Positions 38,932 to 59,700 of a stretch of 64,000 bases of DNA are shown here, in pieces. The translations under genes were made by a program, and so were the position numbers. How positions within the stretch are numbered: the stretch's first letter is position 1; each line of letters starts with the position of its first letter. The notes below the pieces were generated by a model. The model searched no databases and had not been told where the DNA came from. It saw only the letters and a program-made list of their open reading frames with translations. The DNA is from Pedobacter sp. (lineage in GTDB: Bacteria; Bacteroidota; Bacteroidia; Sphingobacteriales; Sphingobacteriaceae), in the NCBI GenBank assembly GCA_036677005.1, contig JAKFBV010000069.1, forward strand, positions 3,147 through 67,146. Direction: 5' to 3'.

Positions 38932-40434
38932 TCACTCTGCGGGATAAGTATAGCCTTTTATGTTCCCGGGGATCAGTCTGGTGAGGTATCGCGGTGGGAT
39001 CGAATTCATTCCTTTTAATTCATCACCTGCTTTTCCGTGAATATAGACGGCCAGAACGGCAGCTTCATGTGGAGTATAAGCCTGCGCTAAAAATGCGGCT
39101 ATCATTCCTGTCAAAACATCCCCCATACCGCCAACTGCCATTGCCGGATTTCCTGTCGGATTGATCAGGATATCGCCCTCAGGTAATATAATAAAGGTGT
39201 ACTTATTCTTTAACAGGATGATAATTTTAAATTCTCTGGCTTTTTTCATCCCTAGTGTCAATCGGTCCCACCAGGAACCGGATTTACCGAAAAGGCCGTC
39301 AAATTCTTTTAAATGCGGACAAATAATGCACTGTTCAGGCAATGTATGAAGTAAATCAGGGTTAGAGGCCAGTATATTGAGTGCATCTGCATCAAGCACC
39401 ATGGGAGTTTTTTGGCTCTTAAGAATCAGTTTAAGTAATTCTTTTGAATCATGACCAGTTCCCAAACCCGGGCCAATAGCGATAGAACTGTACTTGCTTA
39501 ATGAGTCATCAGATCCTAACCCGGTTCTTGGGATAAACATGACCTCCGGCGCATAACTGTTCAGGGCAGTAAGGCCTTCTTGAGGAACTGATGCGGTGGT
39601 CAGTCCGGCGCCCGAATGCAGGCAGGCATCGGCGCAGAGCAATGCGGCACCCATAGTTTCGGTATTGCCGGCTATAATCAGGGCATGTCCATAAGTGCCT
39701 TTATGGCTGAATGCTTTCCGCGACTTGATGATGCCACGAATATCAGCTTCTTCAATGAGTTTCCATGGTCCCTGTTGAGATTGTATAAAACCTTCATCCA
39801 GCCCGATCCCGACAACCTTGAATCGATCTGTGGCATTGGCAGATTCGGGAAGGAAGAAATTAATCTTCGGGCGCTGAAAACTGATCGTCAGAGATGCCTT
39901 CAGGATTACTGCTTTCGGGTCAATTGGGCCATCGGATGGAAAACCGCTGGGGACATCAACGGCAATTACTTTTCTGTTGACCAGGTTGAGATGTTCAACA
40001 AGAACTTTCAGGTCCCCTTCCAGAGGCTTATTTAATCCTGAGCCGATCAAGGCATCAACAATGACAAGGGCATTTTCCCCGGAAAATTTATTGCCTGGTG
40101 ATAATTCGGTCAGTGTAATTCCTGTTAATTTCAGGCGATCCAGGTTAGCTTTGAAATCCCCGCTTTCTTTAGCTGAGAAGCGTGCGATTTTTACCGAAAG
40201 GCGGTCGTATGCAGCTTCTTTGAGTAAGCGGGCTATTGCCAGCCCATCACCTCCATTATTTCCTGTACCACAATAAACACTGATCGGGGTATCGATATCG
40301 GGTACCTCCTCCTTAAATGCTCTGACAAAGGCAAGAGCGGCCGTTTCCATAAGGTCCAGCGAGCTGATGGGCTTCGTTTTTATTGTATAGGCATCTGCCT
40401 CCCTGGTTTGGGAGGATGTGAGGAGTTGGAGCAT
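38932..40434 (-). CDS. nnr: bifunctional NAD(P)H-hydrate epimerase / ADP-dependent dehydratase
   Basis: YjeF N-terminal domain (GTGNNGGDG) fused to a carbohydrate-kinase-like C-terminal domain (GGMGDVLTG). Confidence 0.9.
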   Translation of the reverse strand: MLQLLTSSQTREADAYTIKTKPISSLDLMETAALAFVRAFKEEVPDIDTPISVYCGTGNNGGDGLAIARLLKEAAYDRLSVKIARFSAKESGDFKANLDRLKLTGITLTELSPGNKFSGENALVIVDALIGSGLNKPLEGDLKVLVEHLNLVNRKVIAVDVPSGFPSDGPIDPKAVILKASLTISFQRPKINFFLPESANATDRFKVVGIGLDEGFIQSQQGPWKLIEEADIRGIIKSRKAFSHKGTYGHALIIAGNTETMGAALLCADACLHSGAGLTTASVPQEGLTALNSYAPEVMFIPRTGLGSDDSLSKYSSIAIGPGLGTGHDSKELLKLILKSQKTPMVLDADALNILASNPDLLHTLPEQCIICPHLKEFDGLFGKSGSWWDRLTLGMKKAREFKIIILLKNKYTFIILPEGDILINPTGNPAMAVGGMGDVLTGMIAAFLAQAYTPHEAAVLAVYIHGKAGDELKGMNSIPPRYLTRLIPGNIKGYTYPAE

Positions 40435-40464
40435 ATACTAAATTAAGAAAAAGCAGGGGGGTTT

Positions 40465-43311
40465 TTAAGAAACTCCCATCTCAATTGCCAGATATTTCCC
40501 TGTATGACTGTCTTTTACCTTTACCAGATCCTCGGGGGTTCCTTCAAATAAGATCTGCCCGCCTCCTGAGCCTCCCTCCGGACCGAGATCGATCACCCAG
40601 TCGGCCACTTTGATCACATCCAGATTATGTTCGATAACGAGGATCGTATTCCCATGGTCCACCAGCCGGTTAAGTACACCAAGCAGTACATTGATATCCT
40701 CAAAATGGAGTCCGGTAGTGGGTTCATCCAGGATGTAGAATGTATTTCCGGTATCTTTTTTGGAAAGCTCAGTTGCCAGTTTTACCCGCTGCGCTTCACC
40801 GCCTGATAAGGTGGTGGAGGATTGTCCGAGACGGATATATCCCAGTCCGACATCCTGTAAGGTCTTGATCTTGCGGTAGATAGCAGGAATAGGCTCAAAG
40901 AATGCGACTGCTTCCTCAATACTCATATCCAGAACATCACTGATTGATTTTCCCCGGTAGCGTACCTCCAGCGTTTCGCGGTTATAGCGCTTGCCGCTGC
41001 ATTCCTCGCATGGAACCTGTACATCAGGCAGAAAGTTCATTTCGATGACCTTCAGGCCTGCGCCCTGACAGGTTTCGCAGCGCCCGCCTTTTACATTGAA
41101 TGAAAAACGGCCAGGTTTATAACCTCGGATCTTGGCTTCCGGAAGCATGACGAACAGATTCCTGATATCCGAAAAGACGCCGGTATAGGTTGATGGATTG
41201 GATCTTGGCGTACGCCCGATAGGGGCCTGATCAATTTCAATTACCTTATCGATATGCTCAAGTCCTTCGATTTTTTTATAGGCCATTGGTTTTTTCTTTG
41301 CCCTGAAAAAATGATGGTTAAGTATCGGGTAGAGTGTATCGGCGATCAGGGTTGATTTACCGCTGCCTGAAACCCCGCTAACGCAGATCAGTTTCCCGAG
41401 CGGGAATTCAACAGATACATCTCTGAGATTATTGCCGCTGGCATTCTTCAGGATCAGAAATTTTCCATTGCCCTTCCTCCGTTCAGCCGGAATTTTAATT
41501 TCTTTTCGGCCATTGAGGTAATCATTGGTTAGGGTTTTAGCTTTCGCAAATTCAGCAGGCGTTCCTTCACCCACTACCTCACCTCCATGTTCGCCGGCTG
41601 CCGGACCCATATCGATCACATGATCGGCATGCATGATCATGTCTTTATCATGTTCGACAACCAAAACCGTATTGCCGATATCCCGCAGGTTTTTTAACGC
41701 CGATATCAGCCGGGCATTATCCCGCTGATGCAGGCCAATACTGGGTTCATCCAGAATATACAATACGTTGACCAGCTGTGAACCGATCTGGGTTGCCAGA
41801 CGGATACGCTGGGCTTCGCCTCCTGATAATGTTTTGGCAGTGCGGTCCAGGGTGAGGTAGTTCAATCCCACGTCCAGAAGAAATCCAATTCTGGAACGGA
41901 TCTCCTTTAATATCTCTCTGGCTATGGTATTTTGCCTGTCGTTTAAGCGGCTTTCCAGATCTTCAAACCACTTGTAGAGATGGGAAATGTCCAGGCAGGC
42001 AAGCTCATAGATATTCTTATTGTCAACCTTAATATGCAGGGATTCCTTTTTCAGGCGTGCACCCATACATTCAGGGCATGTTTTCAAAACACGGTAGTTT
42101 TCCAGGTCTTCGCCAACGTCTTCCCCGCGGCGCTCGGTTTGCTCTTCCAGCATTTTGATGATTCCGTCAAAAGAGATCTGATAGTTCTGAACATTCCATT
42201 TATTATACTCGACCGGAACAGTTATGATATCATGAGAGCCATTAAGAATGATCTCTACAATATCTTCAGGGATCTTTTCAATGGGGGTGGAAAGCGAGAA
42301 ATTATACTTTTTCGCAAGCGCTTTCAGGATCTGGAAGACCCAGGTCTCACGGTATTCACCGAGCGGAGCGAGTCCCCCCTGCATAATACTCAGCCTGGGG
42401 TTTGGAATAACCGAATGCCGGTCAACCTCAAAGATATATCCCAAACCACCGCATCGTTCACAGGCACCATAGGGTGAATTGAAAGAGAAGGTATTGGGTT
42501 GGGGTTCATCATAGGAGATCCCGGATAGGGGATCCATGAGGAATTTACTGTAAAAAAATTCTTTATTTTCTTTATCGCTGATCTTGATAATCCCTTTTGA
42601 AACCTTTAGGGCCGATTGTATTGAATCATAAAGTCTTTTTTTATCATCCGGGCTTACCAGCAGCCTGTCGATAACCATTTCAATATCATGGATCTTATAT
42701 CGGTCGAGCTGCATTTTGGGACTGATATCCAGAATTTCTCCGTCAACCCGTACCTTAAGATAGCCCTGTTTACGGATCTGCTCGAATAATTCACGGTAAT
42801 GCCCTTTCCGGCCTTTAACTACCGGGGCAAGGATACTTACTGCCTGTCCTTCAAATTTTTCAAGGACACTTTTAAGGATCTGATCTTCGGTCATGCGTTC
42901 CATCTTTTCGCCGCTGACATAGGAATAGGCCTCCCCGGTTCGAGCAAAAAGCAGGCGCATAAAATCGTAGATCTCGGTAATGGTCCCCACGGTAGAGCGG
43001 GGATTTTTGCTGGTGGTTTTTTGTTCAATGGCGATCACCGGACTTAAGCCGGAGATTTTATCGACATCAGGACGCTCCATGCCTCCCAGGAACTGCCGGG
43101 AATAAGCGCTGAAAGTTTCCATATATCTCCGCTGTCCTTCTGCATAGATCGTATCGAATGCCAGCGATGATTTTCCGCTGCCGCTCAATCCGGTTATAAC
43201 AACCAGTTTATTGCGCGGAAAGGAAACATCGATATTTTTTAAATTGTGAACTCTGGCACCAAAAACTTCAACTTCACTTTGCTCGCCAAGATCGGGATTA
43301 GATTTATTCAT
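40465..43311 (-). CDS. uvrA: excinuclease ABC subunit UvrA
   Basis: Two ABC ATPase modules ([22 protein letters not shown]), zinc-finger Cys clusters and 948 aa in length. Confidence 0.97.
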
Positions 43312-49431: not shown

Positions 49432-51087
49432 ATGCAAACGCCAGATTATATTGTATTTTTTATCTATTTCCTCATTGTAAGTACCTATGGATGGTATGTT
49501 TACAGGCGTAAGAAGCACGAAAATTCAAAAGATTATTTCCTGGCAAAGGATTCATTAACCTGGTGGGCTATCGGAGCCTCATTGATCGCTTCCAATATTT
49601 CTGCAGAGCAGTTTATCGGAATGAGCGGTTCGGGCTTTACCATGGGACTTGCCATAGCAGCTTATGAATGGCTTGCTGCTGTTACCTTATTGATCGTGGC
49701 TGTATTTTTCATTCCAATTTATCTCAAGAATAAGATCTATACCATGCCTCAGTTTCTTAAAACGAGGTATAATGAAACGGTAGCCATGATCATGGCTGTT
49801 TTCTGGCTTTTATTGTATGTTGTTGTTAACCTGACCTCTATACTCTTTCTTGGAGCCTTGGCAATCAGCAGTATTTCGGGACTGGATTTCGGACTTTGTA
49901 TGATTGCATTGGCTGTATTTGCCGTTATAATCACCCTTGGGGGGATGAATGTGATCGGCTATACCGATGTGATCCAGGTGGTGTTCCTTGTTCTGGGCGG
50001 ACTGGTAACCACTTACCTGGCACTGGATATGGTGGCCCAGCATTACGGATCAGCAGGAGCGATCAATGGTTTCAACCTGATGACAGAGAATTCTGCCGAT
50101 CATTTTAAAATGATATTTAAAAAGGATGACCCTTATTTCATGGACCTGCCCGGACTTGCCGTGCTGGTCGGAGGTATGTGGATAGTCAACCTGAATTACT
50201 GGGGATGTAATCAGTACATCACCCAGAGAGCCCTGGGTGCAGATCTGCATACTGCCCGCAGCGGAATCCTCTTTGCGGCTTTCATTAAATTATTGATGCC
50301 GCTTATTGTTGTTCTGCCGGGAATAGCTGCATTTGTATTGTATAAAGAGGGGGTTTTCAGTACGGAAATGACACTGAATGGTGAAGTGGTCGGCGACCGC
50401 GCCTATCCGGTCCTGCTGAACCTTTTGCCTGTGGGTTTAAAAGGCTTATCATTCGCCGCCCTGACTGCTGCGGTAGTGGCATCCCTTGCCGGGAAGGCAA
50501 ACAGTATTGCCACTATTTTCACCCTTGACATTTATAAGAAGAAAATAAACCCGGCTGCGGGTGAGCACAAACAGGTGCAGGTTGGGCGATGGGTTATTGT
50601 AATATCCATGATCATGGCCGTGGCCATTGCACCTTATCTGGGCATTGATAAAAAAGGAGGGTTTCAGTATATTCAGGAATATACAGGTTTCGTTTCACCG
50701 GGAATATTTGCTATGTTCCTGCTTGGATTTTTCTGGAAAAAGACCACTTCAAATGCAGCCTTATTTGCTACGATCGGCGGCTTCATTTTATCCGTTTTAT
50801 TCAAGGCCTCACCCAATTATGTGGATCTCGAATTCCTTTATTCTTTTGGTTTTGCCGTACCGAATGCAGAAGGAGTTTACGAAATCCCATTTATCGACCG
50901 TATGGGATTTGTATTTCTGATCTGTGTGTTCGTCATGTTCCTGATCAGTATGTATGAGAACCGTAATGGAGTTATCCCCAATGGGCTGGAAGTGGATAAG
51001 AGCATGTTCCGGACTTCCGCATCCTTTGCGGTTGGAGCATTGATCGTTCTGGGGATAATTGTGGCACTATATAGTATATACTGGTAG
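49432..51087 (+). CDS. sodium:solute symporter (SSS/SGLT family)
   Basis: About 13 TM helices with an SGLT-like N-terminal region (FLAKDSLTWWAIGASLIASNISAEQFIGMSG). Confidence 0.9.
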   Translation: MQTPDYIVFFIYFLIVSTYGWYVYRRKKHENSKDYFLAKDSLTWWAIGASLIASNISAEQFIGMSGSGFTMGLAIAAYEWLAAVTLLIVAVFFIPIYLKNKIYTMPQFLKTRYNETVAMIMAVFWLLLYVVVNLTSILFLGALAISSISGLDFGLCMIALAVFAVIITLGGMNVIGYTDVIQVVFLVLGGLVTTYLALDMVAQHYGSAGAINGFNLMTENSADHFKMIFKKDDPYFMDLPGLAVLVGGMWIVNLNYWGCNQYITQRALGADLHTARSGILFAAFIKLLMPLIVVLPGIAAFVLYKEGVFSTEMTLNGEVVGDRAYPVLLNLLPVGLKGLSFAALTAAVVASLAGKANSIATIFTLDIYKKKINPAAGEHKQVQVGRWVIVISMIMAVAIAPYLGIDKKGGFQYIQEYTGFVSPGIFAMFLLGFFWKKTTSNAALFATIGGFILSVLFKASPNYVDLEFLYSFGFAVPNAEGVYEIPFIDRMGFVFLICVFVMFLISMYENRNGVIPNGLEVDKSMFRTSASFAVGALIVLGIIVALYSIYW

Positions 51088-51125: not shown

Positions 51126-52100
51126 ATGAGGCTTGATACGATTGAAGAGGTAAAAAAATATCTTATTGAACAAGGCATTGTCCATGAAGATTCAGAACCC
51201 ATTGTAGAACATCTTTCCGGCGGGGTATCATGCAGGGTATGGAAAATCAGCGTGGATCAGGATCGCTGGGTCATCAAACAGGCGCTTGAGAAACTTAATG
51301 TTAAAGCAGACTGGTTTTCTGATGTTGAGCGCATTCATCGTGAACATGAGGTGATGAAACAATTGGAACTGATCCTTCCTGATTGTCATGTACCGAAGGT
51401 ATTGCATGTTGATTATGTTAATCACATCTACCTGATGACCTGCGCCGAAGAAGGAGTTCAGACCTGGAAAGATCTGTTGATGCAGGGTATATTCAATGCG
51501 GATACAGCCAAAAGTGCCGCAGATATTCTTACCCGGATCCACAGCCAGAGCTTTAAAATTGATGAAAAGATAAAGGCGGGCTTTAGTGATCAGAAATATT
51601 TTATTCAGCTGCGCATTGATCCCTTCCACCGCTTTTTAATTCAAAAATATCCGGAGCTTTCGGCTGAGATCAATGGTTTGATAGAAGAACTGACCGGACA
51701 AAAGATCTGCCTGGTTCATGGGGATTTTTCTCCAAAGAACATGCTCGTTGAAAAGAGCGGGAGTATCGTTTTAATTGATTATGAGGTGGCGCATTGGGGA
51801 AATCCTGTTTTTGACCTGGCTTATTGTTTGGGTCATCTGATGTTAAAAGCCTGGCATCTGAAAAAACCGGATGAGATGCTTGAGCTGATCGGCGTGTTCC
51901 TTGCCAATTATAAAGGACAGGTCAATAATCTTTTGCCGCACCTGGGCTTGATGCTTCTGGCCCGGGTGGATGGGAAATCGCCGGTGAATTACATTGAGGA
52001 TGAAAATTTAAAACAAATTATCAGGGATACAGCCATTAACTGGATCAAAGGGAAGAACCTGGGTTTGAATGTTTTTGAGGCCATCAAAAAGCAATTTTAA
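51126..52100 (+). CDS. APH-fold kinase, methylthioribose-kinase (MtnK)-like
   Basis: VIKQAL.KL.V...W, HGDFSPKNMLV and IDYEVAHWGNPVFDLAY parallel the MtnK/APH catalytic motifs (comparison from memory). Confidence 0.8.
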   Translation: MRLDTIEEVKKYLIEQGIVHEDSEPIVEHLSGGVSCRVWKISVDQDRWVIKQALEKLNVKADWFSDVERIHREHEVMKQLELILPDCHVPKVLHVDYVNHIYLMTCAEEGVQTWKDLLMQGIFNADTAKSAADILTRIHSQSFKIDEKIKAGFSDQKYFIQLRIDPFHRFLIQKYPELSAEINGLIEELTGQKICLVHGDFSPKNMLVEKSGSIVLIDYEVAHWGNPVFDLAYCLGHLMLKAWHLKKPDEMLELIGVFLANYKGQVNNLLPHLGLMLLARVDGKSPVNYIEDENLKQIIRDTAINWIKGKNLGLNVFEAIKKQF

Positions 52101-52179: not shown

Positions 52180-53481
52180 ATGTCAAAAATAAGAGATATA
52201 AAAGCAAGGGAAATTTTCGATTCACGCGGTAATCCTACCGTTGAGGTTGATGTATTTCTGGAATCGGGTGTTATGGGAAGAATGATGGTGCCTTCAGGGG
52301 CATCTACCGGGCAGTTTGAAGCATTGGAGTTACGTGATGGCGGAAATCGTCACAGAGGTAAAGGAGTGAGGAAAGCTGTTGCGAATGTTAACTCGGATAT
52401 CAGAAATGTTTTGATCGGTCAGGATATCGGGGATCAGGATCGGCTGGATAATCTGATGATCGAACTGGATGGCACTCCCGAAAAATCCAGGCTGGGTGCG
52501 AATGCCATACTCGGCGCTTCATTCGCCTGTATTCATGCCGCTGCCAATGAAGCAGCTGAACCTTTATTCAGATATCTGGCTAAGAAATATCTTCCTGCCG
52601 GAGATGAGGTTTCGATGCCTGTACCCATGGTAAATATCATCAGCGGTGGATTGCATGCGGGAAAGAATATTGATCTGCAGGATTTTCTGATCATACCCGT
52701 ATCGCCCAAAAACTATCCGGATGCACTCGAAATGATCTATAATGTGTACTGGAAAACACGCGAATTACTCATAAAAAAAGGATATAACGCCTATCTGCTT
52801 GCTGATGAGGGGGGGTTCGGACCTGCTTTACCTTCGAATGAGGCAGCTCTTGAGGTTTTGGGAGAAGTATTTCATGCATGCGGTTACAAACCGCGTACTG
52901 ATATTGCAATCGCACTTGATGTCGCCTCCTCCCATTTCTATGATGAAGCTAAAGGAGTATATCACCTGCATTCAGAAGAGCGTTCGCTTAACTCTGAACA
53001 GATGATCGGTATGCTCGAAAAGTGGTGCAGGGAATATCCGGTGATCTCAATTGAGGATGGTCTTGCAGAAAATGATTGGGAGGGATGGCAGATTTTGACA
53101 GAAAGGCTTGGTAAACATATTCAGCTGATCGGCGATGATCTCTTTACAACGAATAAGCTGCGATTACAGAAAGGGTTTGATATGAAGGCCGGAAACTCAA
53201 TCCTTGTGAAAATGAATCAGATCGGGACACTGACCGAGACTGTTAACACACTCCGGATGGCAAAGAATGGAGGCTTCAGCACGGTGGTTTCTGCCCGTTC
53301 GGGTGAAACGGAAGATGCTACCCTGGCAGACCTCGCTGTAGGGTTGAACGGCGGACAGATCAAAATCGGCTCGGTGGCCGGATCTTCAAGACTTGCCAAA
53401 TACAATCAGTTGCTCAGGATCAATGAGGAGATCGGCCAGAATTATGCGGGGAGCGCTACTTTCAGTTCATTTGGTATATAA
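52180..53481 (+). CDS. enolase-family protein, divergent paralog (QEF to QDF and SHRSGETED to SARSGETED)
   Basis: Full-length enolase fold with SGASTG, DEGGF, SIEDG, GDDL, KMNQIGT and GQIKIG conserved, but two catalytic-site residues replaced. Confidence 0.88.
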   Translation: MSKIRDIKAREIFDSRGNPTVEVDVFLESGVMGRMMVPSGASTGQFEALELRDGGNRHRGKGVRKAVANVNSDIRNVLIGQDIGDQDRLDNLMIELDGTPEKSRLGANAILGASFACIHAAANEAAEPLFRYLAKKYLPAGDEVSMPVPMVNIISGGLHAGKNIDLQDFLIIPVSPKNYPDALEMIYNVYWKTRELLIKKGYNAYLLADEGGFGPALPSNEAALEVLGEVFHACGYKPRTDIAIALDVASSHFYDEAKGVYHLHSEERSLNSEQMIGMLEKWCREYPVISIEDGLAENDWEGWQILTERLGKHIQLIGDDLFTTNKLRLQKGFDMKAGNSILVKMNQIGTLTETVNTLRMAKNGGFSTVVSARSGETEDATLADLAVGLNGGQIKIGSVAGSSRLAKYNQLLRINEEIGQNYAGSATFSSFGI

Positions 53482-53489
53482 TCACAAAT

Positions 53490-54440
53490 ATGGAACGTAG
53501 AAAATTCATTACTCTGGGAGCAACAGCCGCTATTGCTGGCATTGCATTACCTGGTATTGCAGTGGGTGGTACAGCAGAAGTCCGGAAGAAAGAGAAAAGG
53601 TACCAGAAAGGCCGGAGTCCCTGGCCGGTGTGCCTGGATACTGCCACCATCAGGCCGGCTTCCTTAATAGAAAAGGTCAGGATCGCAGCTAATGCCGGTT
53701 ATGATGCAATCGAACCATGGGATGGGGAATTGCAAAAGTTCGAAGCAGAGGGTGGTAATCTGAAAGACCTGGGTAAAGAAATAAAAGATAAGGGTTTGTT
53801 TGTCCCCAGCGTGATCGGGCTTTGGAATGCGATACCCCCTACCCGGGAATTATGGGAAAAATCACTCGCAGATACACGTAACCGGATGCGTATGGCTTCA
53901 GATATTGGTGCTCAGCATATACAAACAATCCCGAATACTATCGGAGAAAATTATAATCAAAAGTGGGCCGCAGATCGCTACAGGGACATTATTGAAATGG
54001 GCATCAATGAGTATAAATTGAACCCGGCACTGGTTTTTGTAAAATATTTTCCCATTAAAACGATGGGGCAGGCCGCGGGTATTGCCCTGGATGCCAGCCA
54101 TCCCAAAGCAAAGATCATTCCTGATGTTTACCACATGTATATCAGTGAAGGAGGCTTTGAAGGAATTAAATTGCTTAGAGGTGAGATGATCGCTATTTTT
54201 CAGTTTAATGACGCTCCTGCTTCACCGCCATTAGCACAGCTTAAGGATGAGCACAGGGTGTATCCCGGTGATGGTATTTTGCCTCTGACTCAAATCTTCA
54301 AAGATCTGAAGGGAACCGGGTATAAGGGCTGTATCTCACTTGAGATGTATAATCCGGTCTATTGGAAGGAAGATCTGATGATGGTGGCAGAAACCGGACT
54401 CAGAAAAACATTGGAAGTTCTTCAAAAGGCTGATGTATAG
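53490..54440 (+). CDS. TAT-exported xylose-isomerase-like TIM-barrel protein (sugar phosphate isomerase/epimerase family)
   Basis: Twin-arginine signal MERRKFITLGATAAIAG followed by an AP_endonuc_2-like barrel. Confidence 0.85.
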   Translation: MERRKFITLGATAAIAGIALPGIAVGGTAEVRKKEKRYQKGRSPWPVCLDTATIRPASLIEKVRIAANAGYDAIEPWDGELQKFEAEGGNLKDLGKEIKDKGLFVPSVIGLWNAIPPTRELWEKSLADTRNRMRMASDIGAQHIQTIPNTIGENYNQKWAADRYRDIIEMGINEYKLNPALVFVKYFPIKTMGQAAGIALDASHPKAKIIPDVYHMYISEGGFEGIKLLRGEMIAIFQFNDAPASPPLAQLKDEHRVYPGDGILPLTQIFKDLKGTGYKGCISLEMYNPVYWKEDLMMVAETGLRKTLEVLQKADV

Positions 54441-54490: not shown

Positions 54491-54521
54491 GGTCAGGATG
54501 TAGATATATTCTGACCTTTTT
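54491..54521 (+). terminator. intrinsic terminator ending the plus-strand operon
   Basis: GGTCAG-N14-CTGACC followed by TTTTT. Confidence 0.7.
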
Positions 54522-54620
54522 ATTTACGGGTTTTGACTATTAAAAACTCAAAGGAAATTAAAAATAGGAATTTTGGCGTTTTAACACGCTGTCCGCTGTA
54601 TCTTTTTGGCCTCAAAAAGC

Positions 54621-54648
54621 CAAAAAGCCTGCCTGACGGTAGGCAGGG
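54621..54648 (-). terminator. intrinsic terminator ending the minus-strand operon
   Basis: On the minus strand, CCTGCCT-ACCGTC-AGGCAGG is followed by CTTTTTG. Confidence 0.7.
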
Positions 54649-54735
54649 ATGCCGCTGCCATCGTTAACGCAGCCGGTACACTAAATATCTGCCTGTGCAA
54701 GATATAGCTGGAAAATCATAATCGAACTCAGTTTA

Positions 54736-55290
54736 TTAATCAACGTACGCAATACAATCAATTTGTAAAAGAATACCGTCTCTGCCCATTAAATCGGTCC
54801 CGCATCCGGTATAAGAACGTACCGGAGCCGGGTCAGGGAAATACCCTCTGTAAGCTTCATTCAGGGCAGCAATGTTTTTATTGGGTTCAGCTACAGTCAT
54901 GTGTACTTTAAGAACATTGGCCATTGATGATCCGGCTCCTTCGAGCACCTCTTTCATGGTATCCAGTGCGCTTCGGATCTGCACCTGAATATCTCCGGGT
55001 TCTTTGCGTCTTTCAGCATACCAGCCTCCGATACCCGAAAGGAATAAGAGATGTCCGGAGCGGATACACCCGGATAAAACCCCTCCCGGTCTTGGCGCTC
55101 CGCCTGCTGCAGGGGCAGCCACGGTAGGATTTGTATTGCCTCCGCTATTACTTCGGCGGATAACCTCCTTTTTTGGCGTCCACTGTCCCTTTTGCTTTTT
55201 GTTTTGGGCATTGGCTTCAGCTGGAATTGCTGCTGCTGCTCCTGCAAGTGGTAGGAGACTCAGACTTTTTAGAACCTTTCTGCGATCCAT
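54736..55290 (-). CDS. RidA/YjgF-family protein with a twin-arginine signal peptide
   Basis: MDRRKVLKSLSLLPLAGAAAA (TAT signal), then a RidA core (SGHLLFLSGIGG...PVRSY...IDCIAYV). Confidence 0.88.
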   Translation of the reverse strand: MDRRKVLKSLSLLPLAGAAAAIPAEANAQNKKQKGQWTPKKEVIRRSNSGGNTNPTVAAPAAGGAPRPGGVLSGCIRSGHLLFLSGIGGWYAERRKEPGDIQVQIRSALDTMKEVLEGAGSSMANVLKVHMTVAEPNKNIAALNEAYRGYFPDPAPVRSYTGCGTDLMGRDGILLQIDCIAYVD

Positions 55291-55324
55291 AAGATTGTTT
55301 TATTAAAATTAAAAATGAGTATAA

Positions 55325-55822
55325 TTAATCAACATAGGCGATACAGCTCACCTGACACAGAATACCATCCCTGCCCATCTGGCTGGTTTTAGATCCGCTG
55401 TATGAACGTACAGGTGGATTTTCAGGGAAAAATTCAGCATACGCTTCATTGAGCTTCGCCATATTCTTGTTTGGCTCCGCTACTGTCATCTGTATCTTCA
55501 GCACATTGGCCATAGATGATCCGGCACCTTCCAGAATTCCCTTCATGGTAGTCAGAACACTACGGATCTGAACCTGGATATCTCCCGGCTCAGCCCTCTG
55601 GTTGGCATACCAGCCGCCAATACCCCCAATGAACAATAAATGACCTGAACGAAGGCAGGAGCCTGCCGGTGTTTTGATCAGTTCTTTCTTTGGAAGCCAT
55701 TCTTCTGCAGCACCGGATGCCGGCTCTGAATCAGCTCCTGCATGATGCTTCGCAATAGCGGCAGTTGCAATTCCTGCCAGCGGAATGATGCTCAAGCCCC
55801 TTAGTATTTCTCTGCGTTTCAT
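55325..55822 (-). CDS. RidA/YjgF-family protein with a twin-arginine signal peptide (tandem paralog)
   Basis: MKRREILRGLSIIPLAG, then the same RidA core (SGHLLFIGGIGG...PVRSY...VSCIAYV). Confidence 0.88.
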   Translation of the reverse strand: MKRREILRGLSIIPLAGIATAAIAKHHAGADSEPASGAAEEWLPKKELIKTPAGSCLRSGHLLFIGGIGGWYANQRAEPGDIQVQIRSVLTTMKGILEGAGSSMANVLKIQMTVAEPNKNMAKLNEAYAEFFPENPPVRSYSGSKTSQMGRDGILCQVSCIAYVD

Positions 55823-55890
55823 TGATTTTATTTGTCTTTTACTAGGTCTAAATATAAATAAAAATGAAAGAAATAATTATCAGAACCCAA

Positions 55891-57273
55891 CTATTTTGAA
55901 TCCGGAATCGCAAGCCCAATCTCCCGCGCTAATTTTAAAACTTCCCCCATGATCCCTGGCTCGATCGATTCCTTCCATTTGGCCGGCAATCCGAAGGCCA
56001 TTTGGGAGGTATGGCCTTCATATCCGCCTTCCCTTAAAATTTCCACCGTTGGAATATAAGCCATCACATCATTGGAGTAGCCCATCACAAACAGCTCAGG
56101 ACCAAAGATCTTTTTAAGCTTGATCGCATAGTCCACAACAGGTTCACCACCCAGAGCCACTATCGACTGATCCCCCAACTGCCAGAACTGAACTGGATAG
56201 GGATAGCTGCGTAACATGGGCTCATCCTTTTCATATTTCCGGATCATTTCCAATGCCCAGTTCCTGATGTAACCGCTTTCTTTGGCAAGCATCTGGTTTA
56301 ACTCTTCCTTGCCGGGTGGGTTTTCAAATTCAATACTCACTTCTGAATAGGCGGTACTCAAACGCGGTTCCAGATCCCGCATTTCCCCTTCAAGCACAGC
56401 TTCCACTGCCAATGCGAGTTCCTGACCATATTGCTTTGCCAGTGGGATCGATTTGCGCGGCAATGCATTCTGGTTTCCACCGCAACCCTGGAAAAATAGT
56501 GCAGTGGCTCCGGGATGTGCTTTTTCTACCTGGATCTGTGCATATCCGGCATAATCTCCCGACCAGTCATAACCCTGCAATACTGTATTATGGCAGGCAT
56601 ATCCGAAAGCTATGGCCAAAACTTTCCCCTTTTTATCAGTCACCCTGATCACCGGTACTGCGTAATCACTCGGACCTTTCAGATCTGTTTGTGCATCTAT
56701 TTTTGTCTCAATATTATTCCTCCTGTTTACCGCAAAGCGGCTTATCCCGTTCTGACTTGAAATATTAACAGGTTTCATTGATTTTAAGGCCTTTTTGACC
56801 ATAGCCCCGATCTGATCTTCAAACTTGATGGTATAAGTCCTGATCTGTTCTTTTTGCTGTTCATTCAAGGGATATAAGGCCAGAAGAGCGTCCTGCAATA
56901 CCGGTCCGGAATGGGTATGAGAAGTGTTGAAAATGATCTGACTGCGTGAAAGCCGGAAACTTTTTTCAAGGCGGTTCCGGATAGCATCTGAAATGCTTTT
57001 TGGAATACCGGAGAGGTCGGTAGTGATGAGTACAGCCTTTTTGCCTGCCGCATCTTCGATCACCAGAGCTTTTGCCCAAAGCTCATGAAGTTTACCTTCC
57101 GATGGTTTGGTGCGATGTGCAAATCCGGCCATCCACATGGACTCTTCAGGAGTAATGATTACACTGGCAACTCCGGCTTTCCAGCCAGCCTGATTTTTAT
57201 CCTGTGCCGATGAATTTTGAACGGATAGAATAATAAAAGAAAAAAAAGTAATTAAAAGGATATTCTTTTTCAT
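55891..57273 (-). CDS. neutral/alkaline ceramidase-like exported amidase
   Basis: Signal peptide; WKAGVASVIITPEE...LWAKALVIED...FNTSHTHSGP matches the ceramidase N-terminal domain pattern. Start taken at MKKNILL. Confidence 0.85.
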   Translation of the reverse strand: MKKNILLITFFSFIILSVQNSSAQDKNQAGWKAGVASVIITPEESMWMAGFAHRTKPSEGKLHELWAKALVIEDAAGKKAVLITTDLSGIPKSISDAIRNRLEKSFRLSRSQIIFNTSHTHSGPVLQDALLALYPLNEQQKEQIRTYTIKFEDQIGAMVKKALKSMKPVNISSQNGISRFAVNRRNNIETKIDAQTDLKGPSDYAVPVIRVTDKKGKVLAIAFGYACHNTVLQGYDWSGDYAGYAQIQVEKAHPGATALFFQGCGGNQNALPRKSIPLAKQYGQELALAVEAVLEGEMRDLEPRLSTAYSEVSIEFENPPGKEELNQMLAKESGYIRNWALEMIRKYEKDEPMLRSYPYPVQFWQLGDQSIVALGGEPVVDYAIKLKKIFGPELFVMGYSNDVMAYIPTVEILREGGYEGHTSQMAFGLPAKWKESIEPGIMGEVLKLAREIGLAIPDSK

Positions 57274-57440
57274 ATGTATTAAAAACAGCTCTGCCGGTAT
57301 TGGCAAAAGCAATTTATTGATTTAATAAACACAGTGTCCGCTTAAATATTTTTTTTCTTCGGTTCCGAAGCTGTCCAGATGAGAATTACAAAACATGCGA
57401 CCACATTCGGGATCAGGCTTATCTGTCTTATTCGGGGGGC

Positions 57441-59171
57441 TTATTGAAGTACCTGCTTATACTTCAAAAGATCGGCTTCTAATTCTTTATATGGAACATC
57501 CTGTACTCTGTAATTCTTGTCGATAGCAATACTGGCGGCAATTGCTGCGGATTGTCCCAGTACCATAAATACCGGCTCCATACGGATGGATCCAAAGGCG
57601 ATATGAGTTGCAGACAAGCAGGCGGGAGCAAACAGATTGTTTACTTCTGATTTTTTAGGAACGATCGATCTGTAACTTATCGGATAAGGACCTGCAACAT
57701 GCGCTTCCACATTGCCTTCATTTTTTACAAAACCATTCACATCCACATAGCGTTTAATGTTGTGCGAGTCCATACCATAAGCACCCATTCCAACCGGATC
57801 TTCAGCCACTACCAGACGTTCGCAATTTTTTTGTGTCATCACATAATCACTGATCATACGCCTTGCTTCCCGGATGTATAATTGCCCCTGCCAGCCGTCT
57901 TCCCTTTCATATTCATCCTTGCAGGTGCCCCATGTAGAAACCACATCCCGTACTTTTTTAGGAATACGGGGATGATAGGCAAGGGTCCACATTAAACCCT
58001 GCTGATATTTCCGGTGTCGTTCAACAATCTTTTCGCGCTCTTCATAACCCGCTTCAGGGTAGTCATAATTCTGACCTATAAAATCAGTTGAGAATCCTTT
58101 CTGGTTATTGGTATCTGTTTTACGGTTAGGCATATCCGAATTTATCCAGGGTACTAATGGGTCGCCATAGTCATACATTTTTTCGATGGGACCTTCGGCG
58201 GCCTCGTAGTTTCTCATTAATAATTCATAGTCCAGTTCTTTATAACCTGCAGGTTTAGCAAATGGAATTCGGTTATCAGGATGGTTGGTCAAGGTCATGC
58301 GGAAGCAGTAGGTCTGTATTTTATTGTCGCCTTTTCCATCAATTCCCGGCTTTCCCGGAGAAATAAATGGCAGCAAACCGCTTTTAGGATCACCTTTTTT
58401 AATGTAGGGGTCTACACCTTCAATGAAATTATGATTATACGTATTCATTGAGATGGTTCTGCGCAGAGTCAGGCTAATTTTGTTTGCCTGAATACCGTTT
58501 AATGTTTCTCCATACTGAGTGTTGGATTCACGGCCAACAGTATAGCTTACACCGGCGGCTGCCATTAAATCCCCTTCATAGGTAGCATCAATAAACATTT
58601 TTCCCTGATAAACCTGCCCGCTTTCCATTTGAATGGATGTTATTTTTCCTGAAGCTTTTTTAACCCCGCTTTTACGGTTTAAACGCTGATTATAGACCAG
58701 GCTAATGTTTTTTTCCTTACTTAACATCTCCTGAAAGATCTTCAAAGCCGCCGATGGTTCAAAGGTCCACATGGCATCTTCCTGAGCTGCGCTGGTGGTC
58801 TGCCCGCCGTCCTTATAGCTTTCCCTTTTTTGCCAGATCCAGTTTTCAGGTTTTTGGTAATAGGCTTTTACCTGTTGATAGAATTCTCTGGATAAACCGC
58901 CGATTGCCTGTTTGTTGCCGATATCCGTCTGCCCGAGTCCGCCGGTTGTTAGTCCGCCGATTCTGTTAGTTGGCTCAATTAATATCACTTTTTTGCCCAT
59001 TCTCGAGCTTTGAATGGCTGAGCTGATACCGGTAGAGGTAGCGCCATAGACCACAATGTCGAATTGCTGAGCCGTCTGACTTAAAGCCGTCTGATTCCCC
59101 CAGCAAACTAGAATTGCAAGCAGAATACCGAATTTCTTAAAGGATTTCGCAGTAAAATTCATCTTATACAT
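57441..59171 (-). CDS. exported FAD-dependent oxidoreductase
   Basis: Signal peptide followed by a [17 protein letters not shown] Rossmann dinucleotide motif. The start may be Met4 (59162). Confidence 0.85.
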
Positions 59172-59350
59172 AAAATCTGTTTGATCATTATTTTAAACCA
59201 ACTGAAATAAAACTAAGAAAATATTTGTGGTTTCTGAATAAATCTGTTACCGGCACTTTCTTACCTCTGTAACCTGGCTGAATGGGAACAGCAATTACCC
59301 TGTAGTCGGTGTTATCACCGTCCACATAACTTTGTATTTCAGCCACTTTA

Positions 59351-59386
59351 AAACAAAAAATGCCGTCCGCCTTTGGGCGGACAGCA
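59351..59386 (-). terminator. intrinsic terminator after tRNA-Ser
   Basis: On the minus strand, TGCTGTCCGCC-CAAA-GGCGGACGGCA is followed by TTTTTTGTTT. Confidence 0.8.
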
Positions 59387-59390
59387 TTTT

Positions 59391-59483
<93 letters not shown>

Positions 59484-59511
59484 TAAATTGGGCCTTTTTA
59501 TTATTCTTCTG

Positions 59512-59554
59512 TTCGGCCACTCTCCGAAGGAGTCCTTTGGACTGACACCTCTCC
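59512..59554 (-). other. duplicated tRNA-Ser 5' segment interrupted by a 20-nt hairpin insert
   Basis: The minus strand reads GGAGAGGTGTC[AGTCCAAAGGACTCCTTCGG]AGAGTGGCCGAAC. The gene itself has GGAGAGGTGTCAGAGTGGCCGAAC. Confidence 0.8.
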
Positions 59555-59564
59555 GGAAAGGATG

Positions 59565-59572
59565 CAAAAGTA
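59565..59572 (-). promoter_or_regulatory. -7 box TACTTTTG, 10 nt upstream of the duplicated tRNA 5' segment
   Basis: Plus strand CAAAAGTA. No comparable box lies between the fragment and the real tRNA. Confidence 0.45.
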
Positions 59573-59700
59573 TCAAAATTTTCATTAGTATAATACTGTT
59601 TTTTAAATGGCTCTAAGCTTCCATGGGCTTATATTCATAACATTGTGTGAGCGGCAGGCTCCTGCAGGTTCATCAACAACAAATGTTTACTTAAAATACA

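Follow-up and report, generated by a model that had tools for sequence, protein, structure and literature searches.

Exported flavoprotein, ceramidase-fold amidase, and paired Tat-signal Rid genes in a Pedobacter genome as a possible periplasmic route for glycan-derived amino compounds

The stretch of DNA analyzed here (64,000 nucleotides of contig C69, called the window throughout) comes from a Pedobacter sp. genome of 4.46 Mb in 140 contigs. Among named organisms, its closest relatives are Daejeonella and further Sphingobacteriaceae assemblies of soil, groundwater, and freshwater origin. On its minus strand, the window carries a set of four genes for exported enzymes, i.e., a flavoprotein of the PF12831 family, a hydrolase with the fold of neutral ceramidases, and two RidA paralogs with signals for twin-arginine translocation (Tat). 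We tentatively read this set, with a probability of roughly 40%, as a periplasmic catabolic module that would deacylate, oxidize, and deaminate an N-acylated amino compound, most likely an amino sugar or amino-sugar acid derived from glycans. The ceramidase-fold protein would act as a zinc amidase and strip the N-acyl group, the flavoprotein would oxidize the freed compound, and the two Tat-exported Rid proteins would hydrolyze a carboxylate-adjacent imine or enamine to a keto acid and ammonium. A neighboring exported TIM barrel, SSS transporter, kinase, and enolase paralog may then import and finish the carbon skeleton. We infer these steps, their order, and the substrate from the protein families, folds, conserved residues, export signals, gene fusions, and neighbor patterns described in the following.

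An earlier note on this DNA had described the four genes as a same-strand set of exported enzymes, and their open reading frames (ORFs), families, and signals agree with that description (Table 1). Export signals were judged by reading the translations. The two Rid proteins begin with MDRRKVLK and MKRREILR, a hydrophobic stretch comes next in both, and among 20 members of their subfamily R3 of the twin-arginine motif is invariant while R4 is kept in at least 90%. Both paralogs combine the RR motif with the hydrophobic region of Tat signals and are predicted to be exported. The N-terminus of the amidase, which reads MKKNILLITFFSFIILSVQNSSAQ from M14, and that of the flavoprotein carry signals of the general secretory (Sec) type, and the structure models of both proteins show a lone N-terminal helix at the position of the signal. 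Flavoprotein orthologs differ in their signals, which depending on the genome are of the Tat type or of the Sec or lipoprotein type (L028, L031, L034).

A functional tie between the three families is supported by gene fusions and repeated gene sets. Our fusion survey covered the 150 best cluster representatives of the amidase and, on the flavoprotein side, its long relatives. In one fusion (P0263), a flavoprotein (60% identity) is followed by an amidase (42%) and then an alpha/beta hydrolase (esterase), i.e., in the same order as the window genes. Other fusions join the amidase to a triple-Rid module, with the amidase ahead of three Rid domains in P0377 and P0386 and behind them in P0455, whose cluster has 13 members on separate contigs; three separate clusters among the 150 representatives contain this combination, in both orders. 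Further amidase homologues have an acetyl esterase, a heparinase II/III domain, or a module of DUF7133 and cytochrome c as their fusion partner.

The pattern recurs elsewhere in the genome of the window. All eight exported small Rid paralogs, encoded at seven loci, have an exported PF12831 enzyme or Tat-signal pyridoxal phosphate (PLP) enzyme within six genes (background 5.5%), and six of the eight have an amidase within the same distance (background 7.2%); none of the three signal-less cytoplasmic Rid proteins lies near any of these partners. PF12831 is tied to the Rid subfamily a second time at a locus kept in 18 species (C127:5384-11347; L090:3457-10492), which comprises a protein of the N-acetylglucosamine (GlcNAc) 2-epimerase family, an MFS protein, a Tat-signal PF12831 protein, an optional BNR_2 propeller, and a Tat-signal RidA. 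Contigs C16, C27, C47, and C127 (loci L121-L126) show exported families that are much expanded and repeatedly clustered with signal-bearing Rid proteins; the genome encodes 18 ceramidase-fold hydrolases and 28 amidohydrolases along with 21 PLP enzymes, which are of two types related to Tat-signal members. A 429-amino-acid exported protein of three Rid domains is encoded in a SusC/SusD-type gene run on another contig (C23:78501-79790; L016:1462-2751, minus strand), ca. 13 kb from a ceramidase-fold paralog; this triple-Rid module recurs in other organisms as a fusion with the amidase.

Domains were assigned with Pfam and NCBIfam profiles, and structure models were compared by Foldseek and VIA-align. 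Both small proteins belong to the Ribonuc_L-PSP/Rid family PF01042 (E-values of 5.6e-14 and 2.2e-11; 52.6 and 44.3 bits vs a cut-off of 27.3). R139, which is invariant among the 20 subfamily proteins, lines up with the P-A-R motif found in 2DYY, 2CSL, and 1XRG, and both window proteins keep the arginine equivalent to Arg105 of E. coli RidA. They share the Rid fold and this carboxylate-binding arginine with archetypal RidA proteins (E. coli YjgF/RidA and PH0854, 2DYY) but differ from them in their Tat signals, in invariant Cys56, Arg58, Trp71, and Gln157 that replace the usual RidA residues, in always forming a tandem pair, and in scores of 45.5 and 38.2 bits for the RidA subfamily profile TIGR00004, well short of its cut-off of 106.25. 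Judged by their sequences, the window proteins form a separate subfamily, and it is a small one, with 274 proteins found in 5.8 billion. In a phylum-wide sample of 400 other Bacteroidota genomes it was detected in none (threshold 1e-25), and phylum-wide co-occurrence statistics for the Tat-signal RidA are therefore impossible. Regarding the substrate, the conserved arginine would require a carboxylate beside the imine, as an amino-sugar acid or amino acid would offer it and a sphingoid base would not.

The amidase matches Pfam Ceramidase_alk with its N-terminal domain only (9.7e-16). Its structure model (predicted local distance difference test score, pLDDT, of 93.5) matches 2ZWS, 2ZXC, and 4WGK with Foldseek E-values of 2e-29 to 4e-26 and template modeling (TM) scores of 0.63-0.70, with no other significant matches. 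H132, H134, R197, H241, E390, Y419, and Y431 are invariant or nearly so among 50 homologues and align with motifs of 2ZWS, and this constellation of His-x-His, Arg, His, Glu, and two Tyr represents the zinc-binding and catalytic residues of ceramidases. The enzyme is thus predicted to keep the fold as well as the metal-binding and catalytic residues of neutral ceramidases. Compared with the P. aeruginosa (2ZWS/2ZXC) and human (4WGK) enzymes, it is alike in the fold of the catalytic domain (TM scores of 0.66-0.70) and in this residue constellation but differs in being ca. 170 residues shorter (473 amino acids vs 646-688), in having no C-terminal ceramidase domain, and in a sequence identity of 16-19%. 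Its family (11,282 cluster representatives) differs further in that homologues are fused to Rid, heparinase-like, esterase, or dehydrogenase modules and in that this genome alone encodes 18 exported copies, many beside SusC/SusD-sized pairs or glycan-active enzymes. For several copies, the neighbors include Tat-signal enzymes, glucuronyl-esterase-like proteins, and a heparinase-like lyase in addition to such pairs.

The earlier note had suggested a sphingoid base as one possible substrate, and a pathway of sphingolipid or ceramide catabolism, with the amidase as a true ceramidase and the flavoprotein oxidizing the sphingoid base, would agree with the neutral ceramidase fold and catalytic residues of the enzyme and with the fact that Sphingobacteria make sphingolipids. 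However, besides missing the C-terminal domain, the amidase reaches 37.6 bits for the NCBIfam neutral ceramidase equivalog, whose cut-off is 1200, and the expansion to 18 exported copies within 4.46 Mb, several of which adjoin a SusC/SusD-sized pair, glucuronyl-esterase-like genes, or a heparinase-like lyase, also speaks against this reading. Moreover, a sphingoid base has no carboxylate next to the imine for the Rid arginine to bind. Ceramide catabolism is therefore very improbable in our view, and the sphingoid base suggested previously is an unlikely substrate. An amino sugar or amino-sugar acid of glycan origin is the better fit and more likely, because the Rid arginine needs a carboxylate and because the flavoprotein has glycan-type fusion partners and orthologs in SusC/SusD loci.

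This flavoprotein belongs to FAD_oxidored (PF12831; 3.5e-114), and the context of its family is glycan degradation. Fusion partners within the family comprise GH20, DUF4838, BNR sialidase-type propellers, NanM, SGNH esterases, sulfatases, GH2, GH78, GH92, and PL8, and orthologs of the window protein elsewhere share verified SusC/SusD loci with BNR_2 proteins and sulfatases of the SGSH type. At L031:4789-6357 and L034:13073-17858, flavoprotein orthologs adjoin sulfatases with an N-sulphoglucosamine sulphohydrolase C-terminal domain, a family type that includes enzymes freeing the amine of glucosamine. Metagenomes very commonly contain homologues with 72-92% identity, and a protein atlas search with the flavoprotein returned its own family only. 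Proteins of the same family are known from polysaccharide utilization loci (PULs) of Bacteroidota and the PVC group as "FAD-dependent oxidoreductases", often under a mistaken xanthan lyase label. The window protein is 46-70% identical to orthologs in SusC/SusD loci but differs from such PUL-associated proteins in adjoining Rid genes and in lying outside any PUL, with no SusC/SusD pair beside the four genes in the window. The literature that we searched contained no characterized PUL-type PF12831 member and nothing relevant on PF12831/FAD_oxidored.

Two sets of observations weigh against a module that deacylates, oxidizes, and deaminates. The first concerns the chemistry of the flavoprotein. 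Neither PF01593 nor PF01266 matches it at an E-value of 0.01, and its structure model (pLDDT 88.7) matches solved structures through the generic FAD domain only (Foldseek, VIA-align), aligning with the FAD domains of many flavoproteins at Z-scores of 15-17. Thioredoxin reductases match the model at least as well as L-aspartate oxidase, aminoacetone oxidase, and proline dehydrogenase do, and no likeness to amine or amino-acid oxidases was found beyond the generic FAD domain. In addition, the fusion partners of its family include enzymes for nitrogen-free sugars (GH78, GH92, GH2, and PL8), and a general role in sugar oxidation is therefore at least as likely. The window protein may oxidize amines, and sugar oxidation is a live alternative. 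The earlier note had named a FAD enzyme unrelated to amines, e.g., a sugar oxidoreductase, as the case that would speak against its proposal, and the glycan context of the family comes close to this. Its broader logic of deacylation, imine formation, and hydrolysis outside the cytoplasm is partly supported by the fusions, the neighbor pattern of the eight exported Rid paralogs, and genome co-occurrence (see below), while it is weakened by the missing amine-oxidase domain or fold match and by the glycan context.

The second set concerns linkage, for which gene neighborhoods were rebuilt from fetched loci with our own ORF calling and phmmer. We fetched and then classified 80 species-level loci holding the Tat-Rid subfamily, 36 of which have the Rid type of the window; both paralogs stand in tandem at 34 of these, and the remaining two are cut by contig ends. 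The flavoprotein and amidase genes lie directly upstream of the Rid pair at 13 species-level loci, the flavoprotein gene adjoins the pair without the amidase gene at two, and at one (L058) it lies eight genes away. A further 12 loci with enough flanking sequence have the Rid pair and neither of the other two genes. Every locus with a flavoprotein or amidase gene encodes Rid proteins of at least 79% identity to those of the window; the physical trio is lineage-specific and confined to Daejeonella-like close relatives, with the Rid pair as its stable core. In the rest of the phylum, no Rid, PLP enzyme, or partner gene was seen near flavoprotein orthologs (20 loci; 46-70% identity) or amidase orthologs (seven loci). 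Among the 400 Bacteroidota genomes, 19 encode the flavoprotein and five, from five genera, the amidase subfamily; all of these five also encode the flavoprotein, but this co-occurrence may reflect a shared glycan-foraging lifestyle, and related genomes are not independent. Of the conserved linkage that the earlier note had looked to, the fusions and the genome co-occurrence of amidase and flavoprotein hold up, whereas the physical trio does so in Daejeonella-like genomes only.

As the main rival, these data could also be explained, though we find this somewhat doubtful, by a locally assembled neighborhood with no shared pathway, in which a flavoprotein and an amidase serving glycan foraging landed upstream of an older and self-contained Rid pair. 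The pair would then serve another process such as the sialic-acid locus that adjoins it in relatives or the operon of SSS transporter, kinase, enolase, and TIM barrel. This explanation would account for the Rid pair as the sole constant element (34 of 36 loci), for the distant flavoprotein gene at L058, for flavoprotein and amidase orthologs that elsewhere never adjoin a Rid gene (20 and seven loci), and for the situation in Daejeonella rubra and a related species (L054, L055), where a GntR/FCD regulator and a divergent locus of SusC/SusD, DHDPS (NanA-like), NanM, and MFS genes replace the flavoprotein and amidase genes. The intergenic gap between the latter two would leave room for a separate promoter. 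Its length of 167 nucleotides, as given in the earlier note, is correct with the amidase start at ATG 57273, whose methionine is nearly invariant across the 50 homologues (128 nucleotides from TTG 57312). A sigma-70 promoter scan found six sites vs 10.2 in shuffled sequences, i.e., fewer than expected from shuffling, and the intergenic gaps contain no exact Bacteroidetes TAnnTTTG motif. Evidence against a mere neighborhood comes from the flavoprotein-amidase and amidase-Rid fusions, from the second tie of PF12831 to the Rid subfamily at the C127-type locus, and from an exported Rid beside a candidate imine-making enzyme in eight of eight cases in this genome.

The gene content of D. rubra and its relative also made us consider sialic acid as a possible substrate of the window copy, since the Rid pair of these relatives adjoins a NanA/NanM/GntR locus. 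Orthologs of the NanM, NanA-like, and GntR genes of this locus are, however, missing from the genome of the window. Lacking a NanA-like lyase and a NanM ortholog in this genome, the second locus with its GlcNAc 2-epimerase, MFS, Tat-PF12831, BNR_2, and Tat-RidA genes is not a standard sialic-acid route either.

By analogy, the window set can be regarded as a variant of a known arrangement of extracytoplasmic amino-acid oxidase and RidA. The lao-cccA-ridA cluster of Gluconacetobacter diazotrophicus encodes a Tat-signal L-amino-acid oxidase together with ridA, and periplasmic LAO1 of Chlamydomonas has a catalytic subunit and a Rid-like subunit (PMC5053998). Common features are a flavoenzyme and a Rid protein encoded together and placed outside the cytoplasm and, for the window set as proposed, the release of ammonium from external amino compounds. 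In contrast to these systems, the window encodes a PF12831 protein instead of a flavoprotein of the PF01593 amine-oxidase family, two tandem Tat-exported Rid proteins, and an additional ceramidase-fold amidase, all in a family context of glycan degradation. Searches of the literature for ceramidase with RidA, for sialic acid with flavoprotein and RidA, and for ceramidase with PULs yielded nothing relevant.

Another reading, which we regard as improbable, is that the substrate to be deaminated is an N-acyl amino acid, a lipoamino acid, or an amino acid set free from peptides, e.g., a serine derivative. The amidase would free the amino acid, the flavoprotein would form the 2-imino acid, and the Rid proteins would hydrolyze it to a 2-keto acid such as hydroxypyruvate, which the TIM barrel, transporter, kinase, and enolase would convert via glycerate and 2-phosphoglycerate to phosphoenolpyruvate (PEP). 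The conserved Rid arginine suits 2-imino acids, the known extracytoplasmic systems of flavin oxidase and RidA act on amino acids (PMC5053998), and the TIM barrel is weakly similar to hydroxypyruvate isomerase (1.2e-7). The genes for the kinase and enolase are conserved as a pair in distantly related Bacteroidota (L128-L134), often beside genes for an aldonate dehydratase (IlvD/Edd), an SGL lactonase, FAH, and GntP, and this setting suggests the end of a sugar-acid route from glycerate through 2-phosphoglycerate to PEP, as we would expect from this reading. However, no gene is present for a reductase that would act on hydroxypyruvate or tartronate semialdehyde, the kinase is of no known glycerate kinase type, and the fusion partners and neighbors of flavoprotein and amidase are glycan-type and not peptide- or lipid-type. 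We prefer the reading with a glycan-derived amino compound.

The operon of transporter, kinase, enolase, and TIM barrel is convergent with the four genes, as the earlier note had pointed out, and it adjoins the RidA pair in 12 related species with or without the flavoprotein and amidase genes. Its kinase is found in seven of the 400 Bacteroidota genomes, and six of these also have a PF12831 ortholog. About 6 kb from the transporter operon, the minus strand of the window (38932-43311) carries tandem ORFs of 948 and 500 amino acids, the sizes of a SusC/SusD pair.

Table 1. Features of the four-gene set, its boundaries, and the convergent operon in the window.
Feature	Position	Strand	Details
PF12831 (FAD_oxidored) flavoprotein, exported	57441..59171	-	576 aa, Sec-type signal; Pfam 382.8 bits
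Ceramidase-fold zinc amidase (predicted), exported	55891..57273	-	likely ATG start at 57273; ORF open to TTG at 57312 (473 aa from TTG)
Tat-signal RidA paralog 2	55325..55822	-	165 aa; PF01042; RR motif; R139 aligned with RidA catalytic Arg
Tat-signal RidA paralog 1	54736..55290	-	184 aa; PF01042; Gly/Pro/Asn-rich linker after signal
tRNA-Ser(GGA) and terminator, upstream boundary of the set	59357..59483	-	ARAGORN, Rfam tRNA, terminator scan
3' region of RidA genes, terminator-like hairpin within sub-threshold Flavo-1 RNA match	54578..54678	-	Rfam RF01705
SSS transporter	49432-51087	+	Pfam/NCBIfam
APH-family kinase	51126-52100	+	Pfam/NCBIfam
Enolase, second paralog	52180-53481	+	Pfam/NCBIfam; other enolase on contig C16
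Tat-signal xylose-isomerase-like TIM barrel	53490-54440	+	Pfam/NCBIfam

Upstream, the set is bounded by the tRNA-Ser(GGA) gene at 59394-59483 and its terminator hairpin at 59357-59390; a listed ORF of 96 amino acids at 59295-59585 (minus strand) overlaps this tRNA and is almost certainly no gene. At the other end, the terminator scan found a hairpin (54647-54628) with a T run behind it 3' of the last Rid gene, where Rfam RF01705 (Flavo-1) matches with 34.5 bits (E-value of 1.5e-4), below its gathering score of 42. Two short metatranscriptome contigs match perfectly, one over the Rid 3' region (54515-54737) and one at 55548-55700, a coverage too thin to delimit transcription units; a second run marked "RNA?" may be DNA.

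A wider interpretation, which we hold with considerable doubt, is that amino sugars, possibly including those of the sialic type or N-sulfated or N-acetylated hexosamines, are processed in Bacteroidota by a periplasmic route not yet described. Ceramidase-fold zinc amidases would be N-deacylases of glycans, PF12831 flavoproteins or Tat-exported PLP enzymes would produce an imine or enamine, and exported Rid proteins would hydrolyze it so that ammonium is freed outside the cytoplasm. The literature we searched describes no function for hydrolases with the ceramidase N-domain only (>11,000 clusters), for PUL-type PF12831 flavoproteins, or for signal-bearing Rid proteins; if true, the amino-sugar route would be the first function for these three large uncharacterized exported families. 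The module that we propose for the window would, if it exists, show how bacteria that forage on glycans gain the nitrogen of amino sugars ahead of uptake, and it would correct the "ceramidase" and "xanthan lyase" labels that are spreading through genome annotation.

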